Numbered from the stretch's first letter, positions 30,569 through 60,743 are shown. The stretch is DNA of 63,145 nt from an uncultured virus (IMG/VR IMGVR_UViG_3300020381_000001) (IMGVR_UViG_3300020381_000001); one strand, 5' to 3'. The notes: a model not told the origin generated them from the letters alone. Translations and numbers: made by a program.

Positions 30569-30606
30569 AGGGATCTTGACGATCCCTTTTTTTATGGTAT
30601 AATATA
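30569..30606 (+). repeat. 38-bp terminator/promoter cassette, copy 1
   Basis: AGGGATCTTGACGATCCCTTTTTTTATGGTATAATATA, identical to 31645-31682. Confidence 0.95.
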
Positions 30607-30662
30607 TGTGTTAGTCAAGTTTCGACGAAAATTAACACTTAAGTTATTACTAAGAGGTTATT

Positions 30663-31655
30663 ATGCCAAAATTTAGAAGGTTACCTTCAGAAAACTCCTG
30701 TCCTAAAGTGGATTGGTTTACTCATTTAGATCGTCCAAAAGGAAGAACTTATAAATGCATTAGACGTGAAGTTATTAATTTAGATCATATTGAAAGACAT
30801 AATGAAAATGGTCAAATAGTAAATCTTGCTCGTCAATTAGGAACAGATAAAGAAAATTGTTTATTGATTGCAAATAATATTAAAGTTAATGGGGTATTAC
30901 TCGATGCTCAACCCCCTTTTATTAGCACTGAAAATGTTCTTTTTGATGGGTTTACTAGATTTGATGCATTTAAATTACTTGGAATTACACATTGGGTTTA
31001 CAATGTTGTAGAACCTAAGAAAGGATTTACTTGGGAAGATGTGAGAGATGAAATTGGATTAGGTGCAAATAATCATCCTCCATCTAAATCTGCTTCAGAA
31101 AAAGATTTTGAAAGAAGACTTTGTTATTGGATATCATTACAAGATAAAACTCCTACTCATGGTGCTTGTATAGATTGGATTAACAATATTCCTAATTCAT
31201 TTACTGATGAAAGAATTGCTAAAATTGCGAGAAATTCTCTTAATACCAATGCTACTAAAAATAGCATGGAATCTCTAGAAGCACCAGATGTTATTCGAAA
31301 AACAAATGAATTGGTAAATTTAAATGAAAAGACTAAAGTAATACCAGTTAATATTTCTGGTAATAAAACATACTTTCATCGTGTTGCCTTTGAAAAAATT
31401 AATTCTATTTGTAATAAAAAAGTATCTGATACTTATATGGTAGGATATACTAAAAATATTTCAGCAGAAGACGTTGCTGAAGTTAGAGAGAACGGACTTG
31501 AATATGCTGAGAGGATAAATGAAAATTTTGAAAATGTTTTTCAAGAACGTTTAAAAAAAGGAGAATCCTTTAAATTAATAGATATCAAAGCTTTTGCACC
31601 ACAAATTATTGGAGTAGAGGATGGTTTAGTTGATATAGATAAAAAGGGATCTTGA
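30663..31655 (+). CDS. ParB/Srx-like N-terminal domain protein
   Basis: IANNIKVNG...QPP......LFDGFTR pattern; GAGG RBS. Confidence 0.6.
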   Translation: MPKFRRLPSENSCPKVDWFTHLDRPKGRTYKCIRREVINLDHIERHNENGQIVNLARQLGTDKENCLLIANNIKVNGVLLDAQPPFISTENVLFDGFTRFDAFKLLGITHWVYNVVEPKKGFTWEDVRDEIGLGANNHPPSKSASEKDFERRLCYWISLQDKTPTHGACIDWINNIPNSFTDERIAKIARNSLNTNATKNSMESLEAPDVIRKTNELVNLNEKTKVIPVNISGNKTYFHRVAFEKINSICNKKVSDTYMVGYTKNISAEDVAEVRENGLEYAERINENFENVFQERLKKGESFKLIDIKAFAPQIIGVEDGLVDIDKKGS

Positions 31656-31682
31656 CGATCCCTTTTTTTATGGTATAATATA
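31645..31682 (+). repeat. 38-bp terminator/promoter cassette, copy 2
   Basis: Identical to 30569-30606; it also supplies the stop codon of the enclosed gene. Confidence 0.95.
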
Positions 31683-31684
31683 AA

Positions 31685-31754
31685 GGTCAGAGAAATACTG
31701 ACTGCGGTAATCCCCTTCGGTAGGTTCAGGATTAGCGGCGATAGGAATCTACCA
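31685..31754 (+). ncRNA. Candidate pseudoknotted structured RNA / 5' leader
   Basis: GC-rich intergenic island with three helices, two of them crossing; begins at the predicted transcription start. Confidence 0.55.
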
Positions 31755-31775
31755 CAAAAAAATTAACAAAATTAA

Positions 31776-32042
31776 ATGGATAAAAATATACAGTGCATCA
31801 TCTTACATAATGGTTCAGTTTTGATATCAGAAATTGAAGAAGCATTCGGTGATATACCTGGTGAACCTGATTGTAGATTAATTAGTCCTTTTAAACTAAT
31901 TAAGACTAAAGACATATACATTTTAGAACCATGGTTGGATTTTAGTAATCAATCTGTTACAATGATGAGGTCAGGTGATGCTATTACATTTGTTGAACCA
32001 AATGGTGAATTACTTGACAAATATATTAAATTGACATCTTAA
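31776..32042 (+). CDS. Conserved hypothetical protein upstream of gp43
   Basis: GEPDCRLISPF...LEPW...TFVEP. Confidence 0.75.
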   Translation: MDKNIQCIILHNGSVLISEIEEAFGDIPGEPDCRLISPFKLIKTKDIYILEPWLDFSNQSVTMMRSGDAITFVEPNGELLDKYIKLTS

Positions 32043-34543
32043 TGAGGTTTTACACCAACGTCCAAATGGTTGGAGACAACTTTCTAGTTCGTGGTTATGA
32101 AGATGGTAAACATTTCATGACTCGTGAGAAGTTTTATCCTACACTCTTTGTTTCATCAAAAAGAAAAACAAAATACAAAACCCTTGAAGGGGAGTATGTT
32201 GAATCTGTAGAACCTGGTTCTGTAAGAGATTGTCGTGAGTTTATCAAGAGATATTCTGAGGTAGAAAACTTTAAGGTGTATGGTAATGATCGATATATCT
32301 ATCAATATATTTCGGAACAATATCCCGAAGAAGAAATTAAATTTGATGTAAGTAAGATAAAGATTACCACTTTAGATATTGAGGTTAAGTCTGAGAATGG
32401 ATTCCCTGATGTAGAATCTGCTTCTCAGGAGATATTACTTATCTCAATACAGGATTATAATACAAAACAGATTCGTACTTGGGGTCAAGGACCTTTTAAT
32501 AATAAACAGCAGAATGTAATATACAAAGGATTTAATACTGAGTATGAATTATTAAATGATTTTATTAATTGGTGGATGGTAGAAGATAATACACCAGAGG
32601 TTATTACTGGATGGAATAGTGAATTGTATGATATACCATATCTTACACGTAGACTTGATCGTGTTCTTGGAGAGAAGTTAAAGAAAAGATTATCACCTTG
32701 GGGTTTGGTGACTGAAGATGAAATTTATATTGCAGGACGTAAGAACATTACATATGATATTGGTGGCATCACACAATTAGATTATCTGAATCTTTATAAG
32801 AAGTTTACTTATAAGGCACAAGAGTCATATCGATTGGACTATATTGCATCTGTAGAACTAGGACAGAAGAAATTAGATCACTCAGAGTTTGATACATTCA
32901 AAGACTTTTATACAAATGGTTGGCAGAAGTTTGTAGAATACAACATCATTGACGTAGAACTTGTTGACCGTCTGGAAGACAAGATGAAACTGATTGAACT
33001 TGCAATTGTTATGGCATATGACGCCAAAGCAAACTATGCGGATGTTTTCTCTCAGGTTCGTATGTGGGATACAATTATTTACAACTATCTGAAGAAAAGG
33101 AATATTGTCATACCTCCAAAGGAGAGGTCAAGTAAATCTGAAAAGTATGCAGGTGCATATGTAAAAGAACCAATACCAGGCAAGTATGATTGGGTAGTTT
33201 CTTTCGACTTGAATAGTCTATATCCGCATTTGATTATGCAGTACAATATTTCACCAGAAACTTTACTTGAACAAAGGCATCCATCTGTTACAGTTGATAA
33301 AATTCTCGATGAAGATATTACATTTGAAATGTATAAGGATAATGCCGTATGTGCGAATGGTGCGATGTATCGTAAAGATAAAAGGGGGTTTCTTCCAGAA
33401 CTTATGGAGAAGATCTATAAAGATCGTACCATTTATAAAAAGAAAATGTTGGAGGCAAAGCAACAGTATGAGAAAACAAAAACCAAAACATTGGAGAAGG
33501 AGATCGCAAGGTGCAATAATATCCAAATGGCACGGAAGATCCAACTTAACTCTGCTTATGGTGCTATTGGTAATCAATACTTTCGTTATTACAAACTTGC
33601 GAACGCAGAGGCCATCACTCTATCTGGACAAGTATCAATCAGATGGATTGAAAACAAAATGAATGCTTTCATTAACAAAATACTAAAAACGGAGGATAAA
33701 GATTATGTTATTGCTAGTGATACTGACAGCATCTATCTCAACTTGGGTGATCTTGTCAATAGGATATACAAAGGGAGAGAAAAGACTGCTGAGAGCGTTG
33801 TGTCGTTCCTTAATAAGATCTGTGAGATGGAATTTGAGAAGTATATTGAGAGTTCTTATGAAACGTTGGCGAAATACGTAAATGCTTATGATAATAAGAT
33901 GGTGATGAAACGTGAGAATATTGCGGAACGTGGTATATGGACAGCAAAGAAAAGATATATTCTAAACGTGTGGGATAGTGAGGGTGTAAGATATGATGAA
34001 CCCAAACTGAAGATGATGGGTATTGAGGCAGTCAAGTCATCAACTCCTGCACCTTGTCGGACAATGATTAAGAGTGGACTTAAACTGATGATGAATGGTA
34101 CAGAAGAACAGGTAATTACATTTATTGATGAGTCACGTAAAAAATTTAAGTCACTCCCACCTGAAGATATTGCCTTCCCAAGAACAGCAAATAATTTGCA
34201 GAAGTATAAAGCACATTCAACAATATATGCAAAAGGAACTCCAATACATGTTAGAGGTGCATTATTATTCAATCATTATGTAAAACAAAAGAAGTTGGAT
34301 AATAAATATTCACTTATTAGTAATGGTGAAAAGGTTAAATTTATTTACTTGAAAAAACCAAATATCATACAAGAAAATGTGATATCTTTTATTCAAGATT
34401 TTCCACATGAACTTGGACTTGACAAATACATAGATTATGATCTACAATTTGAGAAGAGTTTCGTTGAACCACTCAAGGCAATACTTGATGCGATTGGATG
34501 GAATGTTGAAAAAACTGTAAACCTTGAATTATTTTTTACATAA
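32042..34543 (+). CDS. gp43: Family B DNA polymerase
   Basis: Exonuclease DIE, SFDLNSLYPH, KIQLNSAYG and SDTDS motifs. Confidence 0.99.
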   Translation: MRFYTNVQMVGDNFLVRGYEDGKHFMTREKFYPTLFVSSKRKTKYKTLEGEYVESVEPGSVRDCREFIKRYSEVENFKVYGNDRYIYQYISEQYPEEEIKFDVSKIKITTLDIEVKSENGFPDVESASQEILLISIQDYNTKQIRTWGQGPFNNKQQNVIYKGFNTEYELLNDFINWWMVEDNTPEVITGWNSELYDIPYLTRRLDRVLGEKLKKRLSPWGLVTEDEIYIAGRKNITYDIGGITQLDYLNLYKKFTYKAQESYRLDYIASVELGQKKLDHSEFDTFKDFYTNGWQKFVEYNIIDVELVDRLEDKMKLIELAIVMAYDAKANYADVFSQVRMWDTIIYNYLKKRNIVIPPKERSSKSEKYAGAYVKEPIPGKYDWVVSFDLNSLYPHLIMQYNISPETLLEQRHPSVTVDKILDEDITFEMYKDNAVCANGAMYRKDKRGFLPELMEKIYKDRTIYKKKMLEAKQQYEKTKTKTLEKEIARCNNIQMARKIQLNSAYGAIGNQYFRYYKLANAEAITLSGQVSIRWIENKMNAFINKILKTEDKDYVIASDTDSIYLNLGDLVNRIYKGREKTAESVVSFLNKICEMEFEKYIESSYETLAKYVNAYDNKMVMKRENIAERGIWTAKKRYILNVWDSEGVRYDEPKLKMMGIEAVKSSTPAPCRTMIKSGLKLMMNGTEEQVITFIDESRKKFKSLPPEDIAFPRTANNLQKYKAHSTIYAKGTPIHVRGALLFNHYVKQKKLDNKYSLISNGEKVKFIYLKKPNIIQENVISFIQDFPHELGLDKYIDYDLQFEKSFVEPLKAILDAIGWNVEKTVNLELFFT

Positions 34544-34737
34544 TGGATTTACCTATTGATGATAAAGATCTTGCAACCATAGTTGAGGCACTAAATCCTC
34601 AGAGACCCAAGGTATCATACCTACTGGAGGATGCAACATTATATAAAAAACTGAAATTAGTGAAGGATGTCAGAGAAACAAATCCTGATGGTCCTTATAA
34701 AAAAATACTTCGTGAACAACATGGAATGGTAATTTAA
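34543..34737 (+). CDS. Hypothetical protein
   Basis: Coupled ORF between gp43 and uvsX. Confidence 0.7.
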   Translation: MDLPIDDKDLATIVEALNPQRPKVSYLLEDATLYKKLKLVKDVRETNPDGPYKKILREQHGMVI

Positions 34738-35744
34738 TGGATTTTTTAAAAGAGATAGTAAATGAGATTGGTGATGAGTACACCCAAATTGCAGCAGACA
34801 TAGATGAAACAGAAAGATTCATCGACACAGGATCATACATCTTTAATGCAGTGGTTAGCGGTTCCATTTATGGTGGGGTATCTAGTAATAAGATCACTGC
34901 CATTGCTGGTGAAACTAGTACTGGTAAAACTTATTTTGCCCTTGCTGTTGTCAAGAACTTTTTGGACACTAATCCTGATGGGTATTGCCTCTATTTTGAT
35001 ACTGAAGCAGCAATTACCAAAGGATTATTGGAGTCTCGTGGAATTGATACGACACGGTTGGTTGTTGTGAATGTCGTAACAATTGAAGAGTTTAGAAGTA
35101 AAGCACTTCGTGCAGTAGATATATATCTTAAGTCAGAAGAAGAGGATCGCAAACCTTGTATGTTTGTGTTAGACTCTCTAGGTATGCTCTCTACAGAAAA
35201 AGAAATAAGAGATGCATTAGATGATAAGCAAGTTCGTGACATGACCAAATCTCAACTTGTGAAGGGAGCATTTAGAATGCTTACTTTAAAACTTGGTCAA
35301 GCAAATATTCCACTTATAGTTACAAACCACACTTACGATGTTATCGGATCTTATGTCCCAACTAAAGAAATGGGAGGCGGCAGTGGCCTCAAGTATGCCG
35401 CGTCTACAATCATTTATCTCAGCAAAAAAAAGGAAAAGGATAAGACAGAAGTTGTTGGAAACATTATTAAAGCTAAGACAGCTAAAAGCAGACTCTCAAA
35501 AGAAAATCAACAAGTCGAAATAAGACTCTATTATGATGAGAGAGGTCTTGATCGTTACTATGGTCTTCTTGAATTAGGAGAACTTGGTGGACTCTGGAAG
35601 AACACTGCTGGAAGATATGAGATTGATGGTAAAAAAATATATGCCAAACAAATATATGCAGAACCAGAAAAATATTTTACAGAAGATGTAATGGGTAAGT
35701 TAGACGAAATTTCCAAAAAACAGTTTTCTTATGGAACGAATTGA
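34737..35744 (+). CDS. uvsX: RecA-like recombinase
   Basis: AGETSTGKT, VLDSLGML and MGGGSGLKYAAS motifs. Confidence 0.96.
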   Translation: MDFLKEIVNEIGDEYTQIAADIDETERFIDTGSYIFNAVVSGSIYGGVSSNKITAIAGETSTGKTYFALAVVKNFLDTNPDGYCLYFDTEAAITKGLLESRGIDTTRLVVVNVVTIEEFRSKALRAVDIYLKSEEEDRKPCMFVLDSLGMLSTEKEIRDALDDKQVRDMTKSQLVKGAFRMLTLKLGQANIPLIVTNHTYDVIGSYVPTKEMGGGSGLKYAASTIIYLSKKKEKDKTEVVGNIIKAKTAKSRLSKENQQVEIRLYYDERGLDRYYGLLELGELGGLWKNTAGRYEIDGKKIYAKQIYAEPEKYFTEDVMGKLDEISKKQFSYGTN

Positions 35745-37107
35745 ATCTACAATTCTTAAAAACTTAATACATAAAGAGGAATATGCACGTAAAGTAATTC
35801 CTTTTATTCAACCTGATTACTTTGAGGATAGAAAAGAAAAGGTAGTGTTTGAGGAGATAATATCTTTTATTGTTAAGTATGGATCATCCATCACAATTGA
35901 AGCACTAAATATTGAGGTTGAAAATAGAACTGATTTAACTGATACTGAATCGAAAGAAATTTATGAGATGAATCAAAATCTTGTGAAATCTCCAGTAGAT
36001 GATCAATGGTTGCTTGATTCTACAGAGAAATGGTGTCGTGATCGTGCAATATATCTTGCATTAATGGAATCAGTTCATATTGCTGATGGGAATGATGATA
36101 AAAAGAATCGTGATGCGATTCCAAATATCTTATCAGATGCACTATCAGTTTCTTTTGATAATAATATTGGTCATGATTACTTACTAAACTACGAAGACAG
36201 GTATGAGTTTTATCACAAGAAAGAAGAAAAAATTTCATTCGATCTTGAGTATTTTAACAAAATTACGAAAGGTGGTTTACCTAACAAGACTCTTAATATC
36301 GCACTTGCTGGTACGGGTGTCGGGAAGTCTTTATTCATGTGCCATTTTGCTAGCTCCGTGTTGCTCCAAGGACGGAACGTACTCTACATTACAATGGAAA
36401 TGGCAGAGGAAAAAATTGCTGAACGAATTGATGCAAACCTTTTAGATGTCTCAATACAGAATCTAACTGATTTACCAAAGAAGATGTTTGAAAATAAAGT
36501 GACTTCCGTGTCAAAGAAAACACAAGGTCATTTAATTATCAAAGAATATCCAACCGCAGGAGCACATAGTGGACATTTCAAAGGTTTACTTAATGAACTT
36601 TCGTTGAAAAAATCTTTTAAACCTGATATAATATTCATAGATTATTTAAATATATGTGCATCCTCACGTTACAAGGCAGGATCTAATGTCAATTCTTACT
36701 CGTATATTAAAGCCATTGCTGAAGAACTCCGTGGTCTTGCAGTTGAGACTAATGTACCTATCTTCTCCGCTACTCAGACGACTCGTTCTGGTTTCGGTAG
36801 TAGTGATGTTGATCTTACTGACACAAGCGAGTCGTTCGGTCTTCCCGCCACTGCTGATCTTATGTTTGCTCTTATTAGTACAGAGGAGCTTGAGGGGTTA
36901 AATCAAATAATGGTAAAACAACTTAAGAACCGATACAACGACCCTACTATTTTTAAGAGATTTGTAATAGGAATAGATCGTGCAAAGATGAGATTATATG
37001 ACTGTGAGCAAAAAGCACAGGAAGATATTCTTGACAATGGAAAGGAAGAGGAGTATAATAAAGAAGATACAAAACCTAAAAAGTCATTTGCAGAATTTAA
37101 ATTTTGA
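35731..37107 (+). CDS. gp41: Replicative DNA helicase
   Basis: AGTGVGKS, IDYLNIC, ATQTTRSG, SESFGLPATAD and KQLKNRY motifs. Confidence 0.97.
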   Translation: MERIESTILKNLIHKEEYARKVIPFIQPDYFEDRKEKVVFEEIISFIVKYGSSITIEALNIEVENRTDLTDTESKEIYEMNQNLVKSPVDDQWLLDSTEKWCRDRAIYLALMESVHIADGNDDKKNRDAIPNILSDALSVSFDNNIGHDYLLNYEDRYEFYHKKEEKISFDLEYFNKITKGGLPNKTLNIALAGTGVGKSLFMCHFASSVLLQGRNVLYITMEMAEEKIAERIDANLLDVSIQNLTDLPKKMFENKVTSVSKKTQGHLIIKEYPTAGAHSGHFKGLLNELSLKKSFKPDIIFIDYLNICASSRYKAGSNVNSYSYIKAIAEELRGLAVETNVPIFSATQTTRSGFGSSDVDLTDTSESFGLPATADLMFALISTEELEGLNQIMVKQLKNRYNDPTIFKRFVIGIDRAKMRLYDCEQKAQEDILDNGKEEEYNKEDTKPKKSFAEFKF

Positions 37108-37328
37108 TAGTCCAAAGAGTTAAATGGTCAAGTGCTGTTGTAATTCTGATTGCAATGGTATTTCATGTTATGGGTTGGACTCCTTGGAATAGCATTCTGC
37201 AAATGATTGGTGCTGCTGGATGGGTTTATGTTGGTTTTAAATCAGGAGAACGAGCAATTATCTTAAACTTTCTTCCACAATTTTTTATTATTATTCCTGG
37301 TCTTATTGTTCTTTATCATACAAAGTAA
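37104..37328 (+). CDS. Small multi-TM membrane protein
   Basis: Three hydrophobic segments; TTG start. Confidence 0.65.
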   Translation: MIVQRVKWSSAVVILIAMVFHVMGWTPWNSILQMIGAAGWVYVGFKSGERAIILNFLPQFFIIIPGLIVLYHTK

Positions 37329-37337
37329 ATTTTAATT

Positions 37338-37799
37338 ATGTCTGGAGACTACAACACACACAACAATCAACAACCAAATATAAATTACACTGATAATAAA
37401 GTTGACCTCAAAAAATACGCTATATTCGTGGATGGTGTCACATCCGATCCCAGTAAGGATTATCAATCTTTCCTTGAGAGTCTTAGTACCCTTGACGGAA
37501 AAGGTGCCAATATTCACAGGCTTCTTACTGCTGCTGTTGGGATTAGTGCTGAAGGTGGTGAGTTTATGGAGATCGTTAAGAAAGTTATTTTCCAAGGAAA
37601 ACCTTGGAACGATGATAATCGTGAGCACCTTGTTATTGAGTTGGGTGATGTTTGTTGGTACGTCATGCAGGCTTGTGCTGCCTTGAATGTAACTCTTGAT
37701 GAAGTGATAGAAGGTAATGTTAATAAATTAAAGAAGAGATATCCTGGTGGAGATTTCGATGTACACTATTCAGAAAACCGTAAGGAGGGAGACCGATGA
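37338..37799 (+). CDS. mazG: MazG nucleoside triphosphate pyrophosphohydrolase
   Basis: AEGGEFMEIVKK, ELGDVCWY and NVNKLKKRYP motifs. Confidence 0.93.
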   Translation: MSGDYNTHNNQQPNINYTDNKVDLKKYAIFVDGVTSDPSKDYQSFLESLSTLDGKGANIHRLLTAAVGISAEGGEFMEIVKKVIFQGKPWNDDNREHLVIELGDVCWYVMQACAALNVTLDEVIEGNVNKLKKRYPGGDFDVHYSENRKEGDR

Positions 37800-37999
37800 G
37801 AGAACAACTAATTAGAGCACTTTTAGCACATGCTAATGGAGACATTCAAAAACATGTTGCAAACGTAGAGGTTTATTTAACTAACCCTGCAGGTATCGGT
37901 GAGCATTCTGACATTACAGAAGCAATCGAAACTGAATTGAATATAATTGCCAAGTATCAAGATCAGATAGACATTATCAATAAATACTTCAAAAAGTAA
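37796..37999 (+). CDS. Conserved hypothetical protein
   Basis: ANVEVYLTNPAGIGEHSDI. Confidence 0.8.
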   Translation: MREQLIRALLAHANGDIQKHVANVEVYLTNPAGIGEHSDITEAIETELNIIAKYQDQIDIINKYFKK

Positions 38000-38008
38000 A
38001 TATTGGCA

Positions 38009-39616
38009 ATGGCTACCAAGATAACTACTGATGATATAGAAACTTATCTTGAGAAGTTAGGTAAGAAGGATTCTAAAGGCAAGGTTTATTTTGAGAGAAT
38101 ATTATTTAATATAAAAACTGCAAAAACAGGTGGTATACAGATTGTCTTAGATAGTCCTGATCATGAACAACTTTTAAAAAATTTTAAAAGTAAAATGATT
38201 AAAACTTTGATGGAAAAGTTTAAAGGTGGTTCTTTAGAAAAGAGAGTAGAAAAACTAAAAGGTGTAAACAAAAAAATAGATAATCCAGTTATTAGATTAA
38301 GATATCTTGATAATGGTGTAAGTCCAAGGTATATTGATTTTGATGTAAAAGAATATCCATCTAAAAAAGATGCTAAAGGTGGAAAGGTAGTTCCTCCAAC
38401 TATATCAGAACCAGCAACTAGGTTGATATTTAATGCAGCATTAAAATCTAAAGGTGAAATATTTCAAACCGCAGAAGACATCATAGTAAATGATGTTTAC
38501 AAAGATTTAGAAAAACTTTTTGGTAAACAATTTAGTCATAAGTTAGATAGTTGGATTTATACATTTCTTAAACAAAATGAATTGTTTTTTAAATATTATG
38601 GTTCAACTAAATGGTCTAAATTTAAACATAAAGATTATAAAAATGAAGATGATATGCAAGTATTTTTTTCAAAACATCTAAAAACTTTAACTATTTCTTC
38701 TACTAAAAAAGTGGGAAGAAATTATACACAATGGAATCCTGCTGATATTTGGGCAGTTAAAACAAAAGATCAAAAAAGTCTTGAAGATGAAATTACAAAG
38801 CAAACAGAAAATCCAAGTCCAGATAATTTATTGAAATTAAATGGTCATTTAATTAGATTGATTGAAAAAAAAGAATTGGTTGGAATATCCCTTAAAAAAA
38901 TTGATTCTGGTGGTAGTTTTAAACTATTCAATGTTGATACATCAAAAAATTTAACCAAACTTAAAACTTGGAAAGCATTGGATGAATTTGAAATGAAAGA
39001 TATTCGTTTTCAAATTCGAAATGTTTTTGAAAATAATCCTGGACAAGCTGATGCAAGAGCTGGTGCAAAAGCTTTTGGTGGTAAAGGTGTTGCAGCAACT
39101 ACTTATATTTACTTTGGTGAAAAATTTAGAGTTGATGTTACTAGAGGATCTGACGGACAATTGCAGTTTAATTCACAAATAGAAGGTGAGAAAGGAGCAC
39201 AAGGAGGACAATCACCAATTCAACCTCTTCTTAAAAGGTTAAAACATCAAAAATCTGGTGTAACTTTTGATAATAAATATAAGTCTTATCCTCAAAATGC
39301 AAATGAGTTTACTAAAATTATAAAGAATAACACATCTAAAGAGTATAAACAATACAAGGAATGGTTTAATTTAGTTTACAAACATCCTAAAAACAATTAT
39401 AAAGTTTCAATGAAATTTGAAGATTGGGCAAATAGTGTATATATGGCATATGAATCTCGTCAAAAAGAAGGTATAGCAAAAATGTCACTTTTAAATTTCT
39501 GGCACGATGCTCTAAAATATCATGATAAACAACCAGTATTTTGGACAGATATATTATACTTTGGTTTAAAGATTACAACTAAAGGACAATTCGGACCTCA
39601 CGCAAAGATATCTTAA
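38009..39616 (+). CDS. Hypothetical protein, putative PD-(D/E)xK-like nuclease
   Basis: WNPADIW...LVGISLKK motif; Lys-rich. Confidence 0.55.
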   Translation: MATKITTDDIETYLEKLGKKDSKGKVYFERILFNIKTAKTGGIQIVLDSPDHEQLLKNFKSKMIKTLMEKFKGGSLEKRVEKLKGVNKKIDNPVIRLRYLDNGVSPRYIDFDVKEYPSKKDAKGGKVVPPTISEPATRLIFNAALKSKGEIFQTAEDIIVNDVYKDLEKLFGKQFSHKLDSWIYTFLKQNELFFKYYGSTKWSKFKHKDYKNEDDMQVFFSKHLKTLTISSTKKVGRNYTQWNPADIWAVKTKDQKSLEDEITKQTENPSPDNLLKLNGHLIRLIEKKELVGISLKKIDSGGSFKLFNVDTSKNLTKLKTWKALDEFEMKDIRFQIRNVFENNPGQADARAGAKAFGGKGVAATTYIYFGEKFRVDVTRGSDGQLQFNSQIEGEKGAQGGQSPIQPLLKRLKHQKSGVTFDNKYKSYPQNANEFTKIIKNNTSKEYKQYKEWFNLVYKHPKNNYKVSMKFEDWANSVYMAYESRQKEGIAKMSLLNFWHDALKYHDKQPVFWTDILYFGLKITTKGQFGPHAKIS

Positions 39617-39617
39617 T

Positions 39618-40796
39618 ATGGCAACTAACGCTCAAGAAACAGCAAAACAAGAAAACGGATCAAGAGTATTTTTTGAATCTGTTATAGAAAAGGGTAAAGA
39701 ACCATCTGCAAAAGAAATGCTAAAGATATATGATGGTTATAGTATAGAATGGAAGATAACATATCAAAAACAAGTTGATGCTGTAAAAAGTTATATTGGA
39801 AAACAGAAAGGATATGAATACTCCAGAGATAGAGGTATAATGCCTTTTATTGAAAACATAGCAAAAACTGATTGTGGTGTATCAGTTAAGGACAGATGGG
39901 ATCCTATGGATATTGTAATGGTAAAGAAAAATATGAAGAAGACTATAGAAGGAACGATTCGTGAATTGACAAATATGAAAGGTATGTCAAAAGATGCCAA
40001 TCTTCTTATTTTGAATGCTTATATGAGAGAGGCATTAAAGGATAAAATTTTAATAGGAATTTCTTTAAAGGCGATTAAATTAAATAAGTTAAAAGCAAAT
40101 GTAGAATTGGCAAATATGAGAGATGATAAGTCTACTCGTGTTAATATTAAACCCATTGATGGATCTCTAAAATGCACACTTACATTAGGTAAAAAGGCAA
40201 ATTACTTGTTTGATACTGGAGAATTAGGATTTGATTTAAAAACAGAATCTGGTGCAGAAATACATGGTCAGACACGTAGTTTTCAATATTCGAAAGCAAG
40301 AAATGTAAGTCAGACTGATTTAACTCCGAAAGGTAGAGATGCTGGTGCTAAACTTGGTAAAGTTTCCAGTATTGCGTTAGATGATTTTTTAGAGAGTAAC
40401 AGTTTAGAAAGACCTTCATCTGCATCTAGACATCCACATATCCCTTTAGTTGGTAAATGGAAAGATACTGATAAGAAATATTGGATAGATTTGTATAATG
40501 AATTAAAAGATTCTACTTATGAAATAGACTTTGGTGAGATTGCAGTCTATGAAAATAATGTTAAGATAGGAGATACGTTTGAAGAAATATTAAATAAATC
40601 AATTGAATATGAAACTGGAAATAAGGATAGAAGTTCTGCTGGAAGATTTTCTTCTAAATTAATTTCTATGGAATGGGCACATATATGGTCAGAAATAGCA
40701 TCAAAAGATAAACTAGAAGAGTGGTGTAGAGTTCTATATTATGGTGCTAAAAAAGAATTTTCTTCTAACAACGGTCCTTTTTTGAAAATATACTAA
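39618..40796 (+). CDS. Hypothetical protein, distant paralog of the upstream gene (putative nuclease)
   Basis: QE motif, WDPMDIV...LIGISLKA, C-terminal GPFLKIY versus GPHAKIS. Confidence 0.55.
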   Translation: MATNAQETAKQENGSRVFFESVIEKGKEPSAKEMLKIYDGYSIEWKITYQKQVDAVKSYIGKQKGYEYSRDRGIMPFIENIAKTDCGVSVKDRWDPMDIVMVKKNMKKTIEGTIRELTNMKGMSKDANLLILNAYMREALKDKILIGISLKAIKLNKLKANVELANMRDDKSTRVNIKPIDGSLKCTLTLGKKANYLFDTGELGFDLKTESGAEIHGQTRSFQYSKARNVSQTDLTPKGRDAGAKLGKVSSIALDDFLESNSLERPSSASRHPHIPLVGKWKDTDKKYWIDLYNELKDSTYEIDFGEIAVYENNVKIGDTFEEILNKSIEYETGNKDRSSAGRFSSKLISMEWAHIWSEIASKDKLEEWCRVLYYGAKKEFSSNNGPFLKIY

Positions 40797-41020
40797 TGAA
40801 TAAAACAATCGAACAACTAATACAATCCTTTGAACCTCGGTCAAGAAATCGAAAACAAATCTTTAATGATTTTTTACATCATTGTTTTATGACCATTGAT
40901 AAAACGATTACTTCTGAAAAACGTAAACGTAATCAGGATAAATATATTATTATGAGGCAAAATCTCATTAACTATCTTATCGCCAACGAAAGAAAAGTAA
41001 CACCCAAACTTTATAAATGA
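40796..41020 (+). CDS. Hypothetical protein
   Basis: Coupled ORF. Confidence 0.6.
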   Translation: MNKTIEQLIQSFEPRSRNRKQIFNDFLHHCFMTIDKTITSEKRKRNQDKYIIMRQNLINYLIANERKVTPKLYK

Positions 41021-42231
41021 AATCATTTTTCCAATTTTTTACTGAATCACAGGCAGTTCAACAAGCCACACGTATGGGTTTAAAGACTGATGGTCATGGA
41101 GGGTGGTATGATAAGAAGGGAGAATTTGTAGCAAAAACAGAGAAAGGACAACTTAAATTTTTTAATAAAAGACAGAAGATAGGTAAGCAAGATCCACCAC
41201 AATCAGAAAAAGAAAGAAAATTATCACAAACAACATCTGCGTCTGCAGCAAAAGCAGAACCTGCATCACAGGCAGAAAAACCAATTGAGATGATTCCACC
41301 AGAGGTGGAGAAAACTAAGGGAACTTTGACAATTGCATTTGGTAGATTTAATCCACCAACCACAGGACATCAAAAACTTTTAGATACTGTTGCAACATCT
41401 TCTGATGATGGTGATTATGTAATTGTTCCATCAAGGAGTCAAGATAAGAAAAAAAATCCATTAGATGCTGATAGTAAAGTTGAAGTTATGAAACAAATGT
41501 TTCCAAATCATAGTGGAAAGATTGTTAATGATCCTGCGAATAGAACTATATTTGATGTAATGAAAAAAGCACATGCTGATGGATATGCAAATGTTAGAAT
41601 TGTTGGTGGTAGTGATCGTGTTGGAGAGTTTGAGAAATTAACTGGAACTTATAATAAAAAACTTTATGATTTTGATAAAATTGAAGTTCGTTCTGCTGGA
41701 GATCGTGATGCTGATGGTGAAGGATTAGAGGGAATGTCTGCATCAAAGCAAAGAAAGTATGCAGCAGATAATGATTTGAAAGGATTTTTACAAGGTGTAC
41801 CAACCTCTATGAATCGTGAAATGGCAAAACAATTATTTCAAAATGTTCGTGCTGGAATGAAGATTGAGGAGGGATGGAACTTATGGCAGATTGCACCTAA
41901 GTTTGATTGGAAAAATTTAAGAGAGAATTATATCAACAAAAAGATATTTAAGATGGGACAAATTGTAGAGAATGTTAATACAGGTTTAATTGGTAAGATT
42001 ATTCGTAGAGGAACAAGTTATTTGATATGTGTTACAGAAGATAAAATCATGTTTAAATCGTGGATAAAAGATGTATCTGAGGCAGTTGTAAATGGATCTG
42101 ATGTGGGTGGAGTTCCACCAGATCAAAGATTAGTTGGTACTGATTCACATCGTAAATATGTAGAGACAATGGTGCCTGGAAGTTCTTACGGAAAACAATT
42201 CATAAATAAATATAGAAAAAAGAAAAATTGA
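41017..42231 (+). CDS. HIGH-family nucleotidyltransferase with a capsid-targeting-like N-terminus
   Basis: MKSFFQFFTE start, FGRFNPPTTGHQKL, KNPL, VGGSDR and MSASKQR motifs. Confidence 0.8.
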   Translation: MKSFFQFFTESQAVQQATRMGLKTDGHGGWYDKKGEFVAKTEKGQLKFFNKRQKIGKQDPPQSEKERKLSQTTSASAAKAEPASQAEKPIEMIPPEVEKTKGTLTIAFGRFNPPTTGHQKLLDTVATSSDDGDYVIVPSRSQDKKKNPLDADSKVEVMKQMFPNHSGKIVNDPANRTIFDVMKKAHADGYANVRIVGGSDRVGEFEKLTGTYNKKLYDFDKIEVRSAGDRDADGEGLEGMSASKQRKYAADNDLKGFLQGVPTSMNREMAKQLFQNVRAGMKIEEGWNLWQIAPKFDWKNLRENYINKKIFKMGQIVENVNTGLIGKIIRRGTSYLICVTEDKIMFKSWIKDVSEAVVNGSDVGGVPPDQRLVGTDSHRKYVETMVPGSSYGKQFINKYRKKKN

Positions 42232-42239
42232 CACGAAAA

Positions 42240-43835
42240 ATGGGTAACATAATATCTGAAGATGCTGCTAATGCACCACAAGCGGGAACTGGTGCTGCAG
42301 ATAAAATTCGTAAATCAGCACGTCAACTTGCATATGATGTTAGATATAAAGTCAAGCAAGGATTTAAGGATGGCCAGAAAGCAGATCCAGTTTCTTTGAA
42401 AAGAGCTTATCTTTCTCAATTAGGGAAATCCCCTGCACCTGGTAATGTGAAGCAGTTGGCTAAAAAAATGTTAGTTGGTGAGGAGTATGATTTTGTTGAT
42501 GTGTCAAATAGTATTTCGAAGTTGGTTAATAAGGCATTTATAGAGCATCATCAGAAAGATAAAGATGGTAATACAATCCCACATGAAGATGAGATAAAAG
42601 AAGAATCTGAAGGTGGAAAGTATAAAATTCGTGTTAAAGATAAGAAGAGTGGTAAGTCATATGTTCGTATGGCAGATCGTGCAAAGATTTCAGAATTAAG
42701 AAAGAATCCAAATATTGCATCTGTTGAAATGACTGGATATGGAACTCCATATGAAGGTGAGAAGAAAAAGGGAGAACAAACTGCAAAAACAAAATCAGGT
42801 AAAGGTTTAGATCCAGTTGGAAAAGAAGACGGTGATGTCAACAATGATGGTAAAAAAGATAAAACAGATTCTTATCTAATGAATCGTCGTAAGGCAATTG
42901 GTAAGGCAATGACAAAGGAAGAGTTCATTGGTGAAGTCGCAGAAACAGATAAGGTTGATGCGAACACTAAAAAAATTGATGTGATGAAGGGTAAGAATAG
43001 TATTAAAATAAATCCTGATATGAAAGAAGAGAAACATGATGATAAGAAAAAAGAAGAGGAGGATGAAGGTAGTTTTGATGCAATGAAAACATTGAAACCT
43101 AAAGAGGGTGGTGATCCAAGAGAAATGCCTACACTTGTCAGATTAATGAAAAATAAATTGAGAGCTAAAGGTTTGAATATGTCATTCAAATTAAATGGTG
43201 AATTAGTTGATGAGATGTATGGTTCTGGTGATGAAGAAAAACCTGATAAGTCAATCGAAACCCAAGAGAAAAAAGCAAACCAAATCAAAAAAATGGTATT
43301 GCGTAAGAAAATTCAGGCAGTAGCTTCTGGTGCAGGAAAAGAAATCATGGCATCAAAGGAAGTTGATGGTGAATTAGTTGAGCAAGAGAAGTCTTATTAC
43401 ATAGACAAGGAAGCAGAAAAACGAGGAATGGAAAGAGAATCTCGTAGAGCACAAAACAAAGCAGCAGCAAAAGAAAGAGCAGCACAAAAAAGAAGATCAG
43501 AAAGAAATCAACTTAGAAGACAGGGACAGTATGGTGCACAAGGAAAATATTATGTAACTAAACATATGGAGAAAGAGGAAGTTAATCCAACAGTTCAGTC
43601 AGCATTGGATTCTCTAAACTCAATAGTAAAAAAAAACTCTAATCTAGGTGAAGAAGGGTATGACATCGCAAGAGACCAAGGAAAAGTAAGACCATCTAAG
43701 GATAAAAAAGATGCGACTACAATGCCAGTAAGTGATGAAATGAAAAAGACACAGAAGGTAAATACAGGACCTTCTGCGGCTGAAATTGTGAGACAGAAGT
43801 ATGGCAAAGCAATTATGGGTATGGGTAAAAAATAA
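42240..43835 (+). CDS. Highly charged modular protein, probable internal head protein
   Basis: K/E-rich; LDPVGKEDGDVNNDG module; repeated GELVxE; late-promoter-like ATAAATA upstream. Confidence 0.7.
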   Translation: MGNIISEDAANAPQAGTGAADKIRKSARQLAYDVRYKVKQGFKDGQKADPVSLKRAYLSQLGKSPAPGNVKQLAKKMLVGEEYDFVDVSNSISKLVNKAFIEHHQKDKDGNTIPHEDEIKEESEGGKYKIRVKDKKSGKSYVRMADRAKISELRKNPNIASVEMTGYGTPYEGEKKKGEQTAKTKSGKGLDPVGKEDGDVNNDGKKDKTDSYLMNRRKAIGKAMTKEEFIGEVAETDKVDANTKKIDVMKGKNSIKINPDMKEEKHDDKKKEEEDEGSFDAMKTLKPKEGGDPREMPTLVRLMKNKLRAKGLNMSFKLNGELVDEMYGSGDEEKPDKSIETQEKKANQIKKMVLRKKIQAVASGAGKEIMASKEVDGELVEQEKSYYIDKEAEKRGMERESRRAQNKAAAKERAAQKRRSERNQLRRQGQYGAQGKYYVTKHMEKEEVNPTVQSALDSLNSIVKKNSNLGEEGYDIARDQGKVRPSKDKKDATTMPVSDEMKKTQKVNTGPSAAEIVRQKYGKAIMGMGKK

Positions 43836-44203
43836 TGCCAGCATTATCTAAGAAACAACAAAAGTTTTTTGGAATTGTTCGTGCCATACAAAAGGGAGAG
43901 CAAGCTCCAACCACACCTGAGACTGCAAAAGCTGCAGCAGATATGAAGAAGGGTGACGTTAAAAAGTTTGCATCTACAAAACACAAAGGTCTTCCTGAGA
44001 AGAAAAGAATAAAAGAGCAATTATCATATCAACATTTCATTAAAAAAGCAAAACAATCTTCAGAAAAAATGAAACAAGATAAACAGAAAAATAGAGAAAT
44101 GGCAGCAGCATCTGCCTACCAAGATAAAAAAGGAAAAGGAATTAAGTTCTACGACAAGAAAGGAGCAGGTAGAATGAAGGATGGTAAAAAAATTTACGAT
44201 TAG
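43835..44203 (+). CDS. Basic protein (DUF3008-like)
   Basis: MPALSKKQQKF...FASTKHKGLPEK. Confidence 0.7.
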   Translation: MPALSKKQQKFFGIVRAIQKGEQAPTTPETAKAAADMKKGDVKKFASTKHKGLPEKKRIKEQLSYQHFIKKAKQSSEKMKQDKQKNREMAAASAYQDKKGKGIKFYDKKGAGRMKDGKKIYD

Positions 44204-44233
44204 TCGCTATATAATATAGTATACTAATTAATT

Positions 44234-44422
44234 ATGACTAAATTTTTACTACCTATTGCTATCAACATTATAGACAAAGCAGTAGATAAAATTCCAGAAG
44301 ACCTAGAGGAAAAAATCAAGGTGTTCGTTATCGCACTTCTTAAGAAGGCTGCTGCCAAATCAGGCAACAAAGTAGATGATAAACTAGTGGAGGCACTAGA
44401 GAAGGCTCTACTAGGTTCTTAA
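44234..44422 (+). CDS. Small helical hypothetical protein
   Basis: SGNKVDDKLVEAL motif. Confidence 0.7.
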   Translation: MTKFLLPIAINIIDKAVDKIPEDLEEKIKVFVIALLKKAAAKSGNKVDDKLVEALEKALLGS

Positions 44423-44425
44423 GTT

Positions 44426-44433
44426 TATAAATA
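44426..44433 (+). promoter_or_regulatory. T4-type late promoter TATAAATA
   Basis: Exact consensus. Confidence 0.75.
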
Positions 44434-44465
44434 TCTTTAGTAAAAAAGATTAATCGGGGAAAACA

Positions 44466-45569
44466 ATGTCTCTTTGGGGAAATAACGATAATAAACTTTC
44501 AGATGGAACAGTATCGGTGAACCATGCTAACCGTACTGTGATTGGAAGTGGAACTACCTTTGGAGGTGGTGTTGGGTATGCGGCCACTGGTGACATCATA
44601 AGATTTGGTGCACCATTTGGTGGAGTTACTGGTTACTTTGGGGAAGCAGTTATTATAGGTATCGCAGGAACTCAATCAATTGTAATTGATTCAACTGCAG
44701 GTTTGAGTCCACAAGAAATAGACTCTCAACAATATCAGATAACACAGTCTCCAAAGTCTTCTGTTACTGATGCAGCATTTAATAAGTTTTCAAGGGCAGT
44801 CACTCAACGTGGAGATCTTAAATTATCAACAACTATTAATGCAAATGTTGCTATCGGTGCTACTACGATAGTCGTTAATAGTGATGCTGCTACTGCAGGG
44901 GTAGGAACAGACGATGTTGTTGTAATACATCATCCTAATGTAAGATCTCAATTTGCAGAAGTTTATAGTGGACCAAGTGGTGTTTCAGCAGGAGTCAGCA
45001 CCGTCATTATTAAAAAAGCTTTAAAAGCAATAAACGGTACATATAAAACTGACGGTAGTGCATACAACTCTGGAGTTAGTGTAGTAAACCTACAAGACGC
45101 AACTGTTCGTTCAATTCTTGATGGTGAAGCATTCGCATCAGGAATTAGAGATCTAGGAAAAGGAGATACATTCACAGCTGGTACTAATAGTATTGGTATT
45201 GGAACTATCCAATTCTTAACTGATGGTGTAACTGCATCTGTCACTTTAGATACTCCATTAACTCAAACCATTGCTGCTAATCCTTTTGGAGCAACAGTAA
45301 TCGTAAAGAGAGGTGGTATCGCTGGTGGTGAAATTGACTTTAGAGGTAAAGAAAGTATCTCTGGTGATGAAACACAAGTTGTTGGTGTCGCAACTGCAGG
45401 TGTAAGGAATGCAAATCAAACTGCTTTTGAAACAGGAGCAGGATGGGTTGGTGTTCAAACCTACAGAGACTTTGAAGGAAATCTAAGAGTTAAAAAAGAA
45501 ATATTGGTTGCGATGTCTGGAATTCAGACTGGTAATACACCAATCTACGATGGAAACCCATTTGCATAA
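44466..45569 (+). CDS. Virion structural protein
   Basis: MSLWG N-terminus, AGWVGV.TY.D..GNLRVK.EILVAMS C-terminus; G/T/V-rich; late promoter upstream. Confidence 0.8.
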   Translation: MSLWGNNDNKLSDGTVSVNHANRTVIGSGTTFGGGVGYAATGDIIRFGAPFGGVTGYFGEAVIIGIAGTQSIVIDSTAGLSPQEIDSQQYQITQSPKSSVTDAAFNKFSRAVTQRGDLKLSTTINANVAIGATTIVVNSDAATAGVGTDDVVVIHHPNVRSQFAEVYSGPSGVSAGVSTVIIKKALKAINGTYKTDGSAYNSGVSVVNLQDATVRSILDGEAFASGIRDLGKGDTFTAGTNSIGIGTIQFLTDGVTASVTLDTPLTQTIAANPFGATVIVKRGGIAGGEIDFRGKESISGDETQVVGVATAGVRNANQTAFETGAGWVGVQTYRDFEGNLRVKKEILVAMSGIQTGNTPIYDGNPFA

Positions 45570-60547: not shown

Positions 60548-60553
60548 ATATTT

Positions 60554-60743
60554 GTTGGACGCAACATAGGGAGTGACTGAATAAACTTACTGGCATAGTG
60601 CTGGTTAAGGTGATGAGACACAGGTGGTGCTGCTGCGAAAGCAGAATCGACTTACCAGTCGGGTCTCAGGCAAAAACGTATTTACTCTGTAGTAATGCCC
60701 GTTTTTTGTTGGTACACAGGAATCCAACCTCCCCCCTTTTTTT
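60554..60743 (+). ncRNA. Large structured RNA, probably the manA RNA motif
   Basis: GC-rich ~190 nt intergenic region. Stems GTTG/CAAC, TGAGAC/GTCTCA, CTGC-GAAA-GCAG, CGACT/AGTCG, GGCAT/ATGCC and GTTGG/CCAAC; upstream of talC. Family name is from recall. Confidence 0.65.

Follow-up and report, generated by a model that had tools for sequence, protein, structure and literature searches.

The window considered here, the whole of a 63,145-nucleotide (nt) stretch of DNA from an uncultured virus (IMG/VR IMGVR_UViG_3300020381_000001), carries at positions 31685 to 31754 a compact island that specifies a pseudoknotted RNA, one member of a family that is large, confined to phages and uncatalogued. 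The island belongs to a module made up of a sigma-70-type early promoter, a hairpin (P1) at the predicted first base of the transcript, an unpaired UG, and a knot in which two helices (P2 and P3) cross; the knotted structure is proven by covariation among the relatives of this sequence. The promoter, P1 and the knot together constitute the conserved unit, and the part downstream is interchangeable, since the promoter spacing is fixed while the genes that follow vary. A sequence-only reading of the window had placed a structured, pseudoknotted RNA behind a sigma-70-type promoter, and this part of its interpretation stands; its further proposal, that the RNA controls the gp43-uvsX-gp41 run of genes, does not.

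A pseudoknot established by covariation

Re-reading of the sequence bore out the anatomy previously described for the island (Table 1), including the pairing coordinates of all three stems, a start closely behind the -10 hexamer (TATAAT ends ahead of the first base of P1), the linker GCGGCGATAG (31735-31744), and an A-rich spacer before the ATG at 31776. No open reading frame (ORF) of at least 40 amino acids overlaps the island on either strand. Folding energy cannot tell the element from chance, as the minimum free energy z-score was -0.56 for both the 70-nt and a 111-nt stretch, with 45 of 200 and 51 of 200 shuffled sequences folding equally well. Nested folding displays P2 or P3 singly, never both.

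The relatives compared come from a phage collection searched with blastn and from IMG/VR, in which a 23-nt degenerate pattern taken from the 3' half of the element gave at least 120 matches; a second IMG/VR scan, with the 5' half, also gave at least 120. From the matches listed by blastn and by the first pattern, 113 distinct copies were retained, the window among them, after exclusion of duplicates, of copies with short flanks and of three loci repeating named records. A MAFFT alignment of all 115 sequences misaligned two length classes; pairs were instead counted in register from the invariant motifs, with no structure-fitted alignment, and each class was also aligned separately without gaps. 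By the anchored counts each of the nine positions of P3 is paired in 104 to 113 of the 113 copies, as many as six pair types occurring at one position, and each of the six positions of P2 is paired in 111 to 113. P2 extends beyond a conserved mismatch, G31707/G31735 (102 of 113), through the pairs C31705-G31737 and G31706-C31736, the latter pair being U-A instead of G-C in 22 copies. The long class, to which the window belongs, has nine P3 pairs and the short class eight, one whole base pair being absent, a loss that itself counts as a compensatory event.

The ungapped alignments uphold the H-type P2/P3 pseudoknot of the sequence-only reading by compensatory changes in two independent length classes, in agreement with the anchored counts. 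In the long class (alignment A2, 60 rows) 99.6% of cells are paired and 10 of 17 pairs have changed on both sides; in the short class (A3, 51 rows) the corresponding values are 99.6% and 10 of 16. Not one of 500 shuffles scored as high in either case, and controls in which the strands were slid reached 21-50% for A2 and 17-51% for A3. Among the pair changes G-U is common and A-C nearly absent, so that the RNA of the + strand is the object of selection. The window fits A2 without gaps, having P1, CUGC and the knot, the CCCUU and GGCGAUAG loops, a single copy of the element and its own promoter.

P1 is conserved in position and free in sequence. A hairpin of at least five base pairs ends exactly at the C of CUGC in 96 of the 113 copies, whereas most other offsets give 15-47 copies and the +1 offset gives 71, and its stems include GUUGA/UCAAC, GUGGUU/GACCAC, GUCAG/CUGAC, GCCAG/CUGGC and others. 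The loop elements associated with the knot (CUGC, CCCUU, a single A, and GGCGAUAG) are near-invariant. The first search pattern imposed TTCAGG, GGC and ATAGGAA; the second IMG/VR scan was anchored on the 5' half only. Of the 99 distinct matches listed from that scan, 93 were real elements and six were chance matches; among the 93, the 3'-half motif is kept exactly in 88 and differs by one change in five, so that the loops are truly near-invariant without having been forced by the pattern. A31728 is likewise retained in 88 of these 93. Major-groove triples between L1 and P3 are suspected.

One IMG/VR copy (L119) departs from the common fold: the 3' strand of its P3 no longer fits the 5' strand (GGTAG versus CCAGG) and no transfer RNA (tRNA) gene lies behind it. 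This copy has probably recombined or is decaying.

Distribution, promoter and neighbouring genes

In a blastn comparison with a phage collection the element was recovered from 59 records at 81-91% identity, the similarity being limited to the element itself, with diverging flanks. The named carriers, about 14 cyanophages, comprise P-SSM2, P-SSM5, many ACG-2014f isolates, S-SM2, Bellamy, S-B43, S-B05, S-H68, RB11-B, S-SCSM2R, SynMITS9220M01, two single-cell "Marine virus" records and S-SKS1, a phage of a different genus outside Kyanoviridae. Each of the five records searched for additional copies contains exactly one true copy, and the window contains one. A covariance model (R1) built from the knot scored 83.3 bits at 31700-31755 of the window, itself part of the training set, and 54.1 bits on S-SM2; its best scores on Syn9, S-PM2 and P-SSM4 were an unconvincing 11.7-13.5 bits (E 0.12-0.34), and P-HM2 gave no match whatever. 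The window itself derives from a T4-like cyanophage, as indicated by a full-length manA RNA (RF01745) at 60553-60738 on the + strand (189.1 bits, E 3.5e-51).

In bacterial and archaeal genomes amounting to 596 billion bases the pattern matched 73 loci, approximately the number estimated for chance. Of the 71 that could be scored, 69 lack the pairings, and the two real copies (L153 and L194) lie on small contigs of metagenome-assembled genomes; no cellular or cyanobacterial homologue with this pattern was found in those 596 billion bases.

The sequence-only reading could not assign the element to a named family, and it belongs to none: cmscan against Rfam 15 gives no credible match at the site. 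At the gathering thresholds of Rfam 15 the manA RNA at 60553 is the only match in the whole window, and a permissive scan of 31550-31900 yielded 11 matches (E 0.16-7) at 13.7-21.9 bits versus gathering thresholds of 48-115, all to unrelated models of small RNAs, microRNAs and small nucleolar RNAs and mostly on the terminator. There is thus no Rfam match at the site to wcaG, manA, PhotoRC, or the glutamine, preQ1, SAM-II/V, ZTP, fluoride and guanidine-III classes, nor to the hammerhead, twister, pistol, hatchet and HDV ribozymes, and the topology is unfit for HDV-like, pistol and other ribozymes when compared by eye with their consensus features. The literature searched yielded no published description of the element. 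One catalogue of viral structured RNAs comprises 10,006 entries with 8,495 candidates from IMG/VR (PMC10690425), and the element may be among the latter; the readable tables of that catalogue, which do not extend to its alignments, hold no text match to the motif, to six contig identifiers or to DUF6561/AIRS.

Two other identities can be set aside on the sequence of P3. A tRNA-like CCA end is contradicted by the pairing of the 3' CC of CUACC within P3, where it covaries (columns 20-54 and 21-53), and many family copies end in CUACUUU, without CCA; ARAGORN finds no tRNA in the window. Nor is P3 a general intrinsic terminator: at least five T follow closely in only 18 of 113 copies, and only one copy (L127) has a clear U-run.

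The promoter of the window is compactly built, its -35 hexamer TTGACG being embedded in the loop and 3' arm of the terminator of the upstream gene. The resulting 34-nt cassette of terminator and promoter occurs in exactly two identical copies in the window (chance expectation 0), at 30570-30603 and 31646-31679, 1.1 kb apart. Only the second is followed by the knot, the twin having a different, knot-less leader, and the knot is therefore not merely a part of the promoter. Arrangements resembling 'CCCTTTTTTTATGnTATAAT' are also seen upstream of many family copies in IMG/VR loci, so that the cassette seems to be the early-promoter unit in standard use among these phages. Behind the knot-less twin, the leader (30604-30662, + strand) precedes a 330-amino-acid phrog_27790 gene and has a possible hairpin at its 5' end, GTGTTA...TAACAC; it may represent a second early transcript that begins with a hairpin.

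Across the family, 87 of 113 copies have a TAnnnT hexamer whose last base lies exactly 6 nt ahead of the first G of P1, and in 81 of the 87 it is accompanied by a -35 element matching at least four of six positions at a spacing of 16-18 nt. The distance from -10 to P1 persists where the promoter sits within the end of the upstream gene. In S-SKS1, S-SCSM2R and SynMITS9220M01 (L002, L006 and L007; about 2440-2475) the small ORFs upstream share a tail, ...KY(N/G/D)W(Q/E)HW(A/E)PF(D/N)..., whose P-F-D codons form the -35 hexamer TTGACA; gene end and promoter thus overlap, and move jointly with the knot.

What follows the knot differs from phage to phage. In 61 of the 113 oriented copies ARAGORN places the start of a tRNA gene 2-6 nt past P3, the gene being tRNA-Arg(UCU) in 50 and tRNA-Pro(UGG) in 11. 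This short linker, which replaces the A-rich spacer of the window, is 3 or 4 nt long in 57 of these copies, and the base preceding the tRNA is U or A in 58 of the 61, never G. Among the remaining copies a tRNA lies further on in four, 44 (including the window) have none, and four have flanks too short to judge. The tRNA-less copies are mostly of the AT-rich long class, as is the window; the first ORFs behind them belong to numerous unrelated clusters, such as DUF6561-like, PurM and a PurM-associated ORF, and the ATG of such messenger RNA (mRNA)-linked copies lies about 15-25 nt past the knot, 22 nt in the window. The DUF6561 gene of the window recurs behind the knot in only three other loci (L038, L045 and L122). 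In named phages the knot stands upstream of purM (P-SSM2), upstream of small hypothetical genes (S-SKS1), after gp41/MazG (ACG-2014f), at the head of a tRNA array after nrdB (S-B43, S-H68, S-B05 and RB11-B), before tRNA-Pro (S-SCSM2R and SynMITS9220M01), and at the head of the second tRNA sub-array (S-SM2).

Two further observations concern the tRNA arrays. In S-SM2 (L215, GU071095.1) the tRNA features are annotated about 54 nt downstream of the actual tRNA sequences: tRNA-Arg reads from locus position 1295 (annotated 1349) and tRNA-Pro from 2555 (annotated 2609), the spans being 1295-1368 and 2555-2628. Because of this shift the knot of S-SM2 lies 3-4 nt from tRNA-Pro, and not 57 nt. In ACG-2014f and S-B43 (L003:2630-2700 and L004:2630-2700), just past the first tRNA-Arg, a short hairpin is followed by a shared stretch, CCAUAGG(A/G)U(A)UGACAGAA, within a long gene-free gap (about 470 nt and about 1 kb) after that tRNA; a further conserved RNA of the tRNA array may lie here.

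Table 1. Features of the module and of the genes behind it in the window.
Feature	Position	Strand	Basis
Intrinsic terminator of the upstream gene: stem GGGATC/GATCCC, loop TTGAC, then T-run	31646-31670	+	sequence; identical twin scored as terminator
Sigma-70-type promoter: -35 TTGACG (31652-31657), 16-nt spacer with TG, -10 TATAAT (31674-31679)	31652-31679	+	11 of 12 consensus matches
P1, 5'-terminal hairpin GGTCAG/AGAAATA/CTGACT (31685-31690 / 31698-31703)	31685-31703	+	sequence, folding, family counts
P2 5' strand, C G [G] TAATCC (TAATCC 31708-31713)	31705-31713	+	pair counts, covariation
L1 loop, CCUUC	31714-31718	+	CCUU invariant in family; not imposed by first search pattern
P3 5' strand, GGTAGGTTC	31719-31727	+	pair counts, covariation
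Single invariant A between P3 5' strand and P2 3' strand	31728	+	within first search pattern
P2 3' strand, GGATTA [G] C G (GGATTA 31729-31734)	31729-31737	+	pair counts, covariation
L3 loop, GCGAUAG, near-invariant	31738-31744	+	class alignments, 5'-half-anchored scan
P3 3' strand, GAATCTACC	31745-31753	+	pair counts, covariation; P3 crosses P2
A-rich unstructured spacer up to the start codon	31754-31775	+	sequence, folding
DUF6561 protein, 88 amino acids, first gene of the transcript	31776-32042	+	PF20198, E 3.1e-24; phrog_483
Family B DNA polymerase, gp43-like	32042-34543	+	Pfam/PHROG matches; start overlaps DUF6561 stop
RecA-like UvsX	34737-35744	+	downstream of gp43; Pfam/PHROG
DnaB-like gp41	35731-37107	+	downstream of UvsX; Pfam/PHROG

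Possible roles of the RNA

The interpretation we favor, tentatively and with somewhat less than even confidence, is that the RNA domain of the knot is itself the functional product, its invariant loops acting on a putative partner. It would be the simplest account of the movement of the knot among tRNAs, purM, polymerase and orphan genes, of its presence in single copy, and of loops that are kept as strictly as the stems. Host RNA polymerase would transcribe the knot early in infection, and P1, placed at the very first base with no 5' overhang, would protect the 5' end. Where a tRNA follows, cleavage by RNase P at its first base would free an RNA of about 55-75 nt with a 3' tail of 2-6 nt, both ends of which would lie within or beside helices, as in a stable RNA. 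Bacterial 3' exonucleases need longer single-stranded tails, so that an RNA whose ends are tucked into helices in this manner should be stable. In copies without a tRNA, including the window, the knot would remain as the 5' end of the mRNA or be cut off within the A/U-rich spacer. The putative partner, a protein or possibly a small ligand, would be common to infections of Prochlorococcus and Synechococcus, and the promoter of the window would also drive the replication operon without the knot being specific to gp43.

Release by RNase P is favored by the linker to the tRNA, which is held within tighter bounds than genome compaction alone demands. The C4 RNA of phages P1 and P7, the 3'ETS-leuZ of E. 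coli and the stable RNAs C and D of T4 are matured by RNase P or derive from tRNA precursors. The knot resembles these in being a phage-encoded, non-tRNA RNA that is co-transcribed with tRNAs and putatively released by the tRNA-processing machinery, but it constitutes the 5' leader itself, immediately adjoining the tRNA, and has no sequence relation to them. It is possible, although speculative, that a new class of phage small RNA, stable, expressed early and matured in this way, serves as a decoy or effector capturing a conserved host factor of marine picocyanobacteria (such as a ribonuclease, RNA polymerase or a ribosomal component), or that the knot represents a natural gate relaying a cellular signal to RNase P.

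Relatives' contigs that cover the element occur in four public libraries of marine RNA type, with small word shares of 0.05-0.17. The depth recorded over 31638-31773 adds up contigs from many relatives and is not a measure of expression, and the uncovered bins beside that span carry no weight either. Three contigs from two studies (X3 record 6; X8 records 12 and 13) stop at 31686-31688, a weak hint that fits a transcript start at P1, given that contigs do not reliably show true ends and that DNA carry-over is possible.

Several considerations weigh against an independently acting RNA. Some contigs extend upstream of P1, X3 record 5 spanning 31645-31717, and upstream arms are also carried by an X8 contig (24 nt before 31674) and by X3 contigs (52 nt before 31702). 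The discrete small RNA is a prediction from sequence, and the element is accessory, being absent from Syn9, S-PM2, P-HM2 and P-SSM4. The 44 copies with neither a tRNA nor a general terminator, including the window, place the knot physically in the 5' untranslated region, and for these a role in cis fits equally well. Finally, RNase P may cut poorly where the leader has only 2-6 single-stranded bases, owing to leader recognition by the RNase P protein, and the knot might consequently gate processing.

Among roles in cis, the one with most in its favor, although unlikely, is in transcription: the nascent knot would bind the RNA polymerase that made it and render the enzyme resistant to pausing or termination throughout the tRNA array or long operon. 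The putL and putR sites of phage HK022 and the EAR element of Bacillus specify such cis-encoded, promoter-proximal, folded antiterminator RNAs; EAR contains a pseudoknot, and put RNA consists of two stem-loops without one. The knot shares with them a promoter-proximal fold and an indifference to the identity of the downstream gene, and its strict, fixed distance from the promoter, its position at the head of tRNA arrays and of a long replication operon, and its restriction to one copy per genome, as would suit one special operon, are all in keeping with such a role. However, a simple scan of 31700-45000 in the window, about 13 kb downstream, found no + strand terminator to be overcome; the tight spacing to the tRNA is not required by this mechanism; and the fold differs from that of put, with no Rfam match to any antiterminator RNA. 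To our knowledge cyanobacteria lack Rho, so that the usual need to shield untranslated transcripts is gone.

Another improbable alternative is that P1 and the knot stabilize the transcript in cis, as a 5' block against the 5'-end-dependent attack of RNase E or RNase J, resembling an exoribonuclease-resistant RNA (xrRNA) or a stabilizer hairpin. Once-per-genome occurrence is difficult to reconcile with this role in view of the many early promoters, one of which, the twin cassette at 30570, stands before a knot-less leader. Protection would need no more than a hairpin, so that the invariant loops are left unexplained, and in 61 of 113 copies the block would shield a tRNA precursor from which RNase P cuts it off 3-4 nt further on. 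These objections are set against the start of P1 at the predicted +1 without a 5' overhang, the position of mRNA-linked knots 15-25 nt before the start codon, and the essential nature of RNase E and RNase J in cyanobacteria as described in PMC8682795.

We assign only a small probability to a gate on tRNA 5' maturation, in which the knot, folding perhaps in response to a ligand or protein, would leave only 2-6 single-stranded leader bases and so control the access of RNase P to the first tRNA. The tightly kept linker and the aptamer-like core with its invariant loops fit such a gate, and PMC7897497 describes a synthetic riboswitch by which RNase P is regulated through concealment or exposure of the 5' leader. 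That designed device resembles the natural arrangement in having a structured 5' leader that adjoins the tRNA and can hide its single-stranded portion, and differs in being synthetic and ligand-driven; many knot copies, moreover, have no tRNA, and a gate does not account for the 44 tRNA-less copies, the window among them, which keep the same invariant core.

The view that the RNA is a leader specific to gp43-uvsX-gp41, autoregulatory in the manner of T4 gene 32 or gene 43, or else a riboswitch, is rejected as very unlikely, being largely refuted by distribution. In its favor, the element of the window does head that operon, an A-rich spacer separating it from the first ATG, and three other loci (L038, L045 and L122) have the same first gene. 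Most copies, however, precede tRNAs or unrelated genes, and cyanomyoviruses exist that have gp43 but not the knot. In T4 and RB69 the translational operator of gene 43 is a hairpin at or adjoining the ribosome-binding site of that gene and is bound by the polymerase; the knot ends at 31753, and the gp43 ATG (32042) lies 288 nt beyond it, with an 88-amino-acid ORF intervening. T4 gene 32 mRNA has an autoregulatory pseudoknot in its leader that is bound by gp32, and the window resembles it in that the leader of a phage mRNA opens with an H-type knot, behind which an unstructured A-rich stretch extends to the start codon. The A/U-rich region leading to the ribosome-binding site is found in the window and other mRNA-linked copies but not in the 61 tRNA-linked ones; no gene 32 homologue follows the knot in any locus examined, the genes downstream being DUF6561/gp43, purM, tRNAs and hypotheticals, so that operation like that of gene 32 is not borne out. 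(The gene 32 pseudoknot is mentioned in PMC10690425.) As for a riboswitch, the invariant loops and covarying stems look aptamer-like, but there is no expression platform: 57 of the 61 tRNA-linked copies leave 3-4 nt, a general terminator is lacking, and the start codon of the window is 22 nt away.

That the module is a DNA-level element (a replication origin or protein-binding site) with an incidental RNA fold has a negligible probability and is largely excluded, for although it is single-copy, adjacent to a promoter and often near genes of replication or nucleotide metabolism, its compensatory changes retain G-U and not A-C, which means that selection acts on one RNA strand, and its GC-rich, folded sequence does not resemble an unwinding element.

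Related RNAs and significance

The nearest kin in kind are manA (RF01745) and wcaG (RF01761), conserved RNAs of T4-like cyanophages located in the 5' regions of varied genes (Weinberg et al. 2010, PMC2864571). They share with the knot the same viruses and habitat, varied and unrelated downstream genes, and an orphan function. There is no kinship in sequence or structure, the knot element being much smaller, a single H-type fold, fixed to a promoter and usually abutting a tRNA.

T4-like cyanophages are among the most abundant viruses of the ocean, and the knot constitutes a third, very well supported class of orphan RNA in these phages, beside manA and wcaG. For annotation, the family corrects the tempting label of DNA-polymerase-operon regulator. 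Its anatomy is unusual, with a position at the predicted start of the transcript, occurrence once per genome, and a knot that in most tRNA-linked copies ends 3-4 nt from the first base of the tRNA. This anatomy opens questions that can be addressed in phage-host pairs such as P-SSM2/NATL1A and S-SM2/WH8017: whether leader RNAs are made by RNase P, whether tRNA maturation is gated, and what the host target of such early phage RNAs may be.

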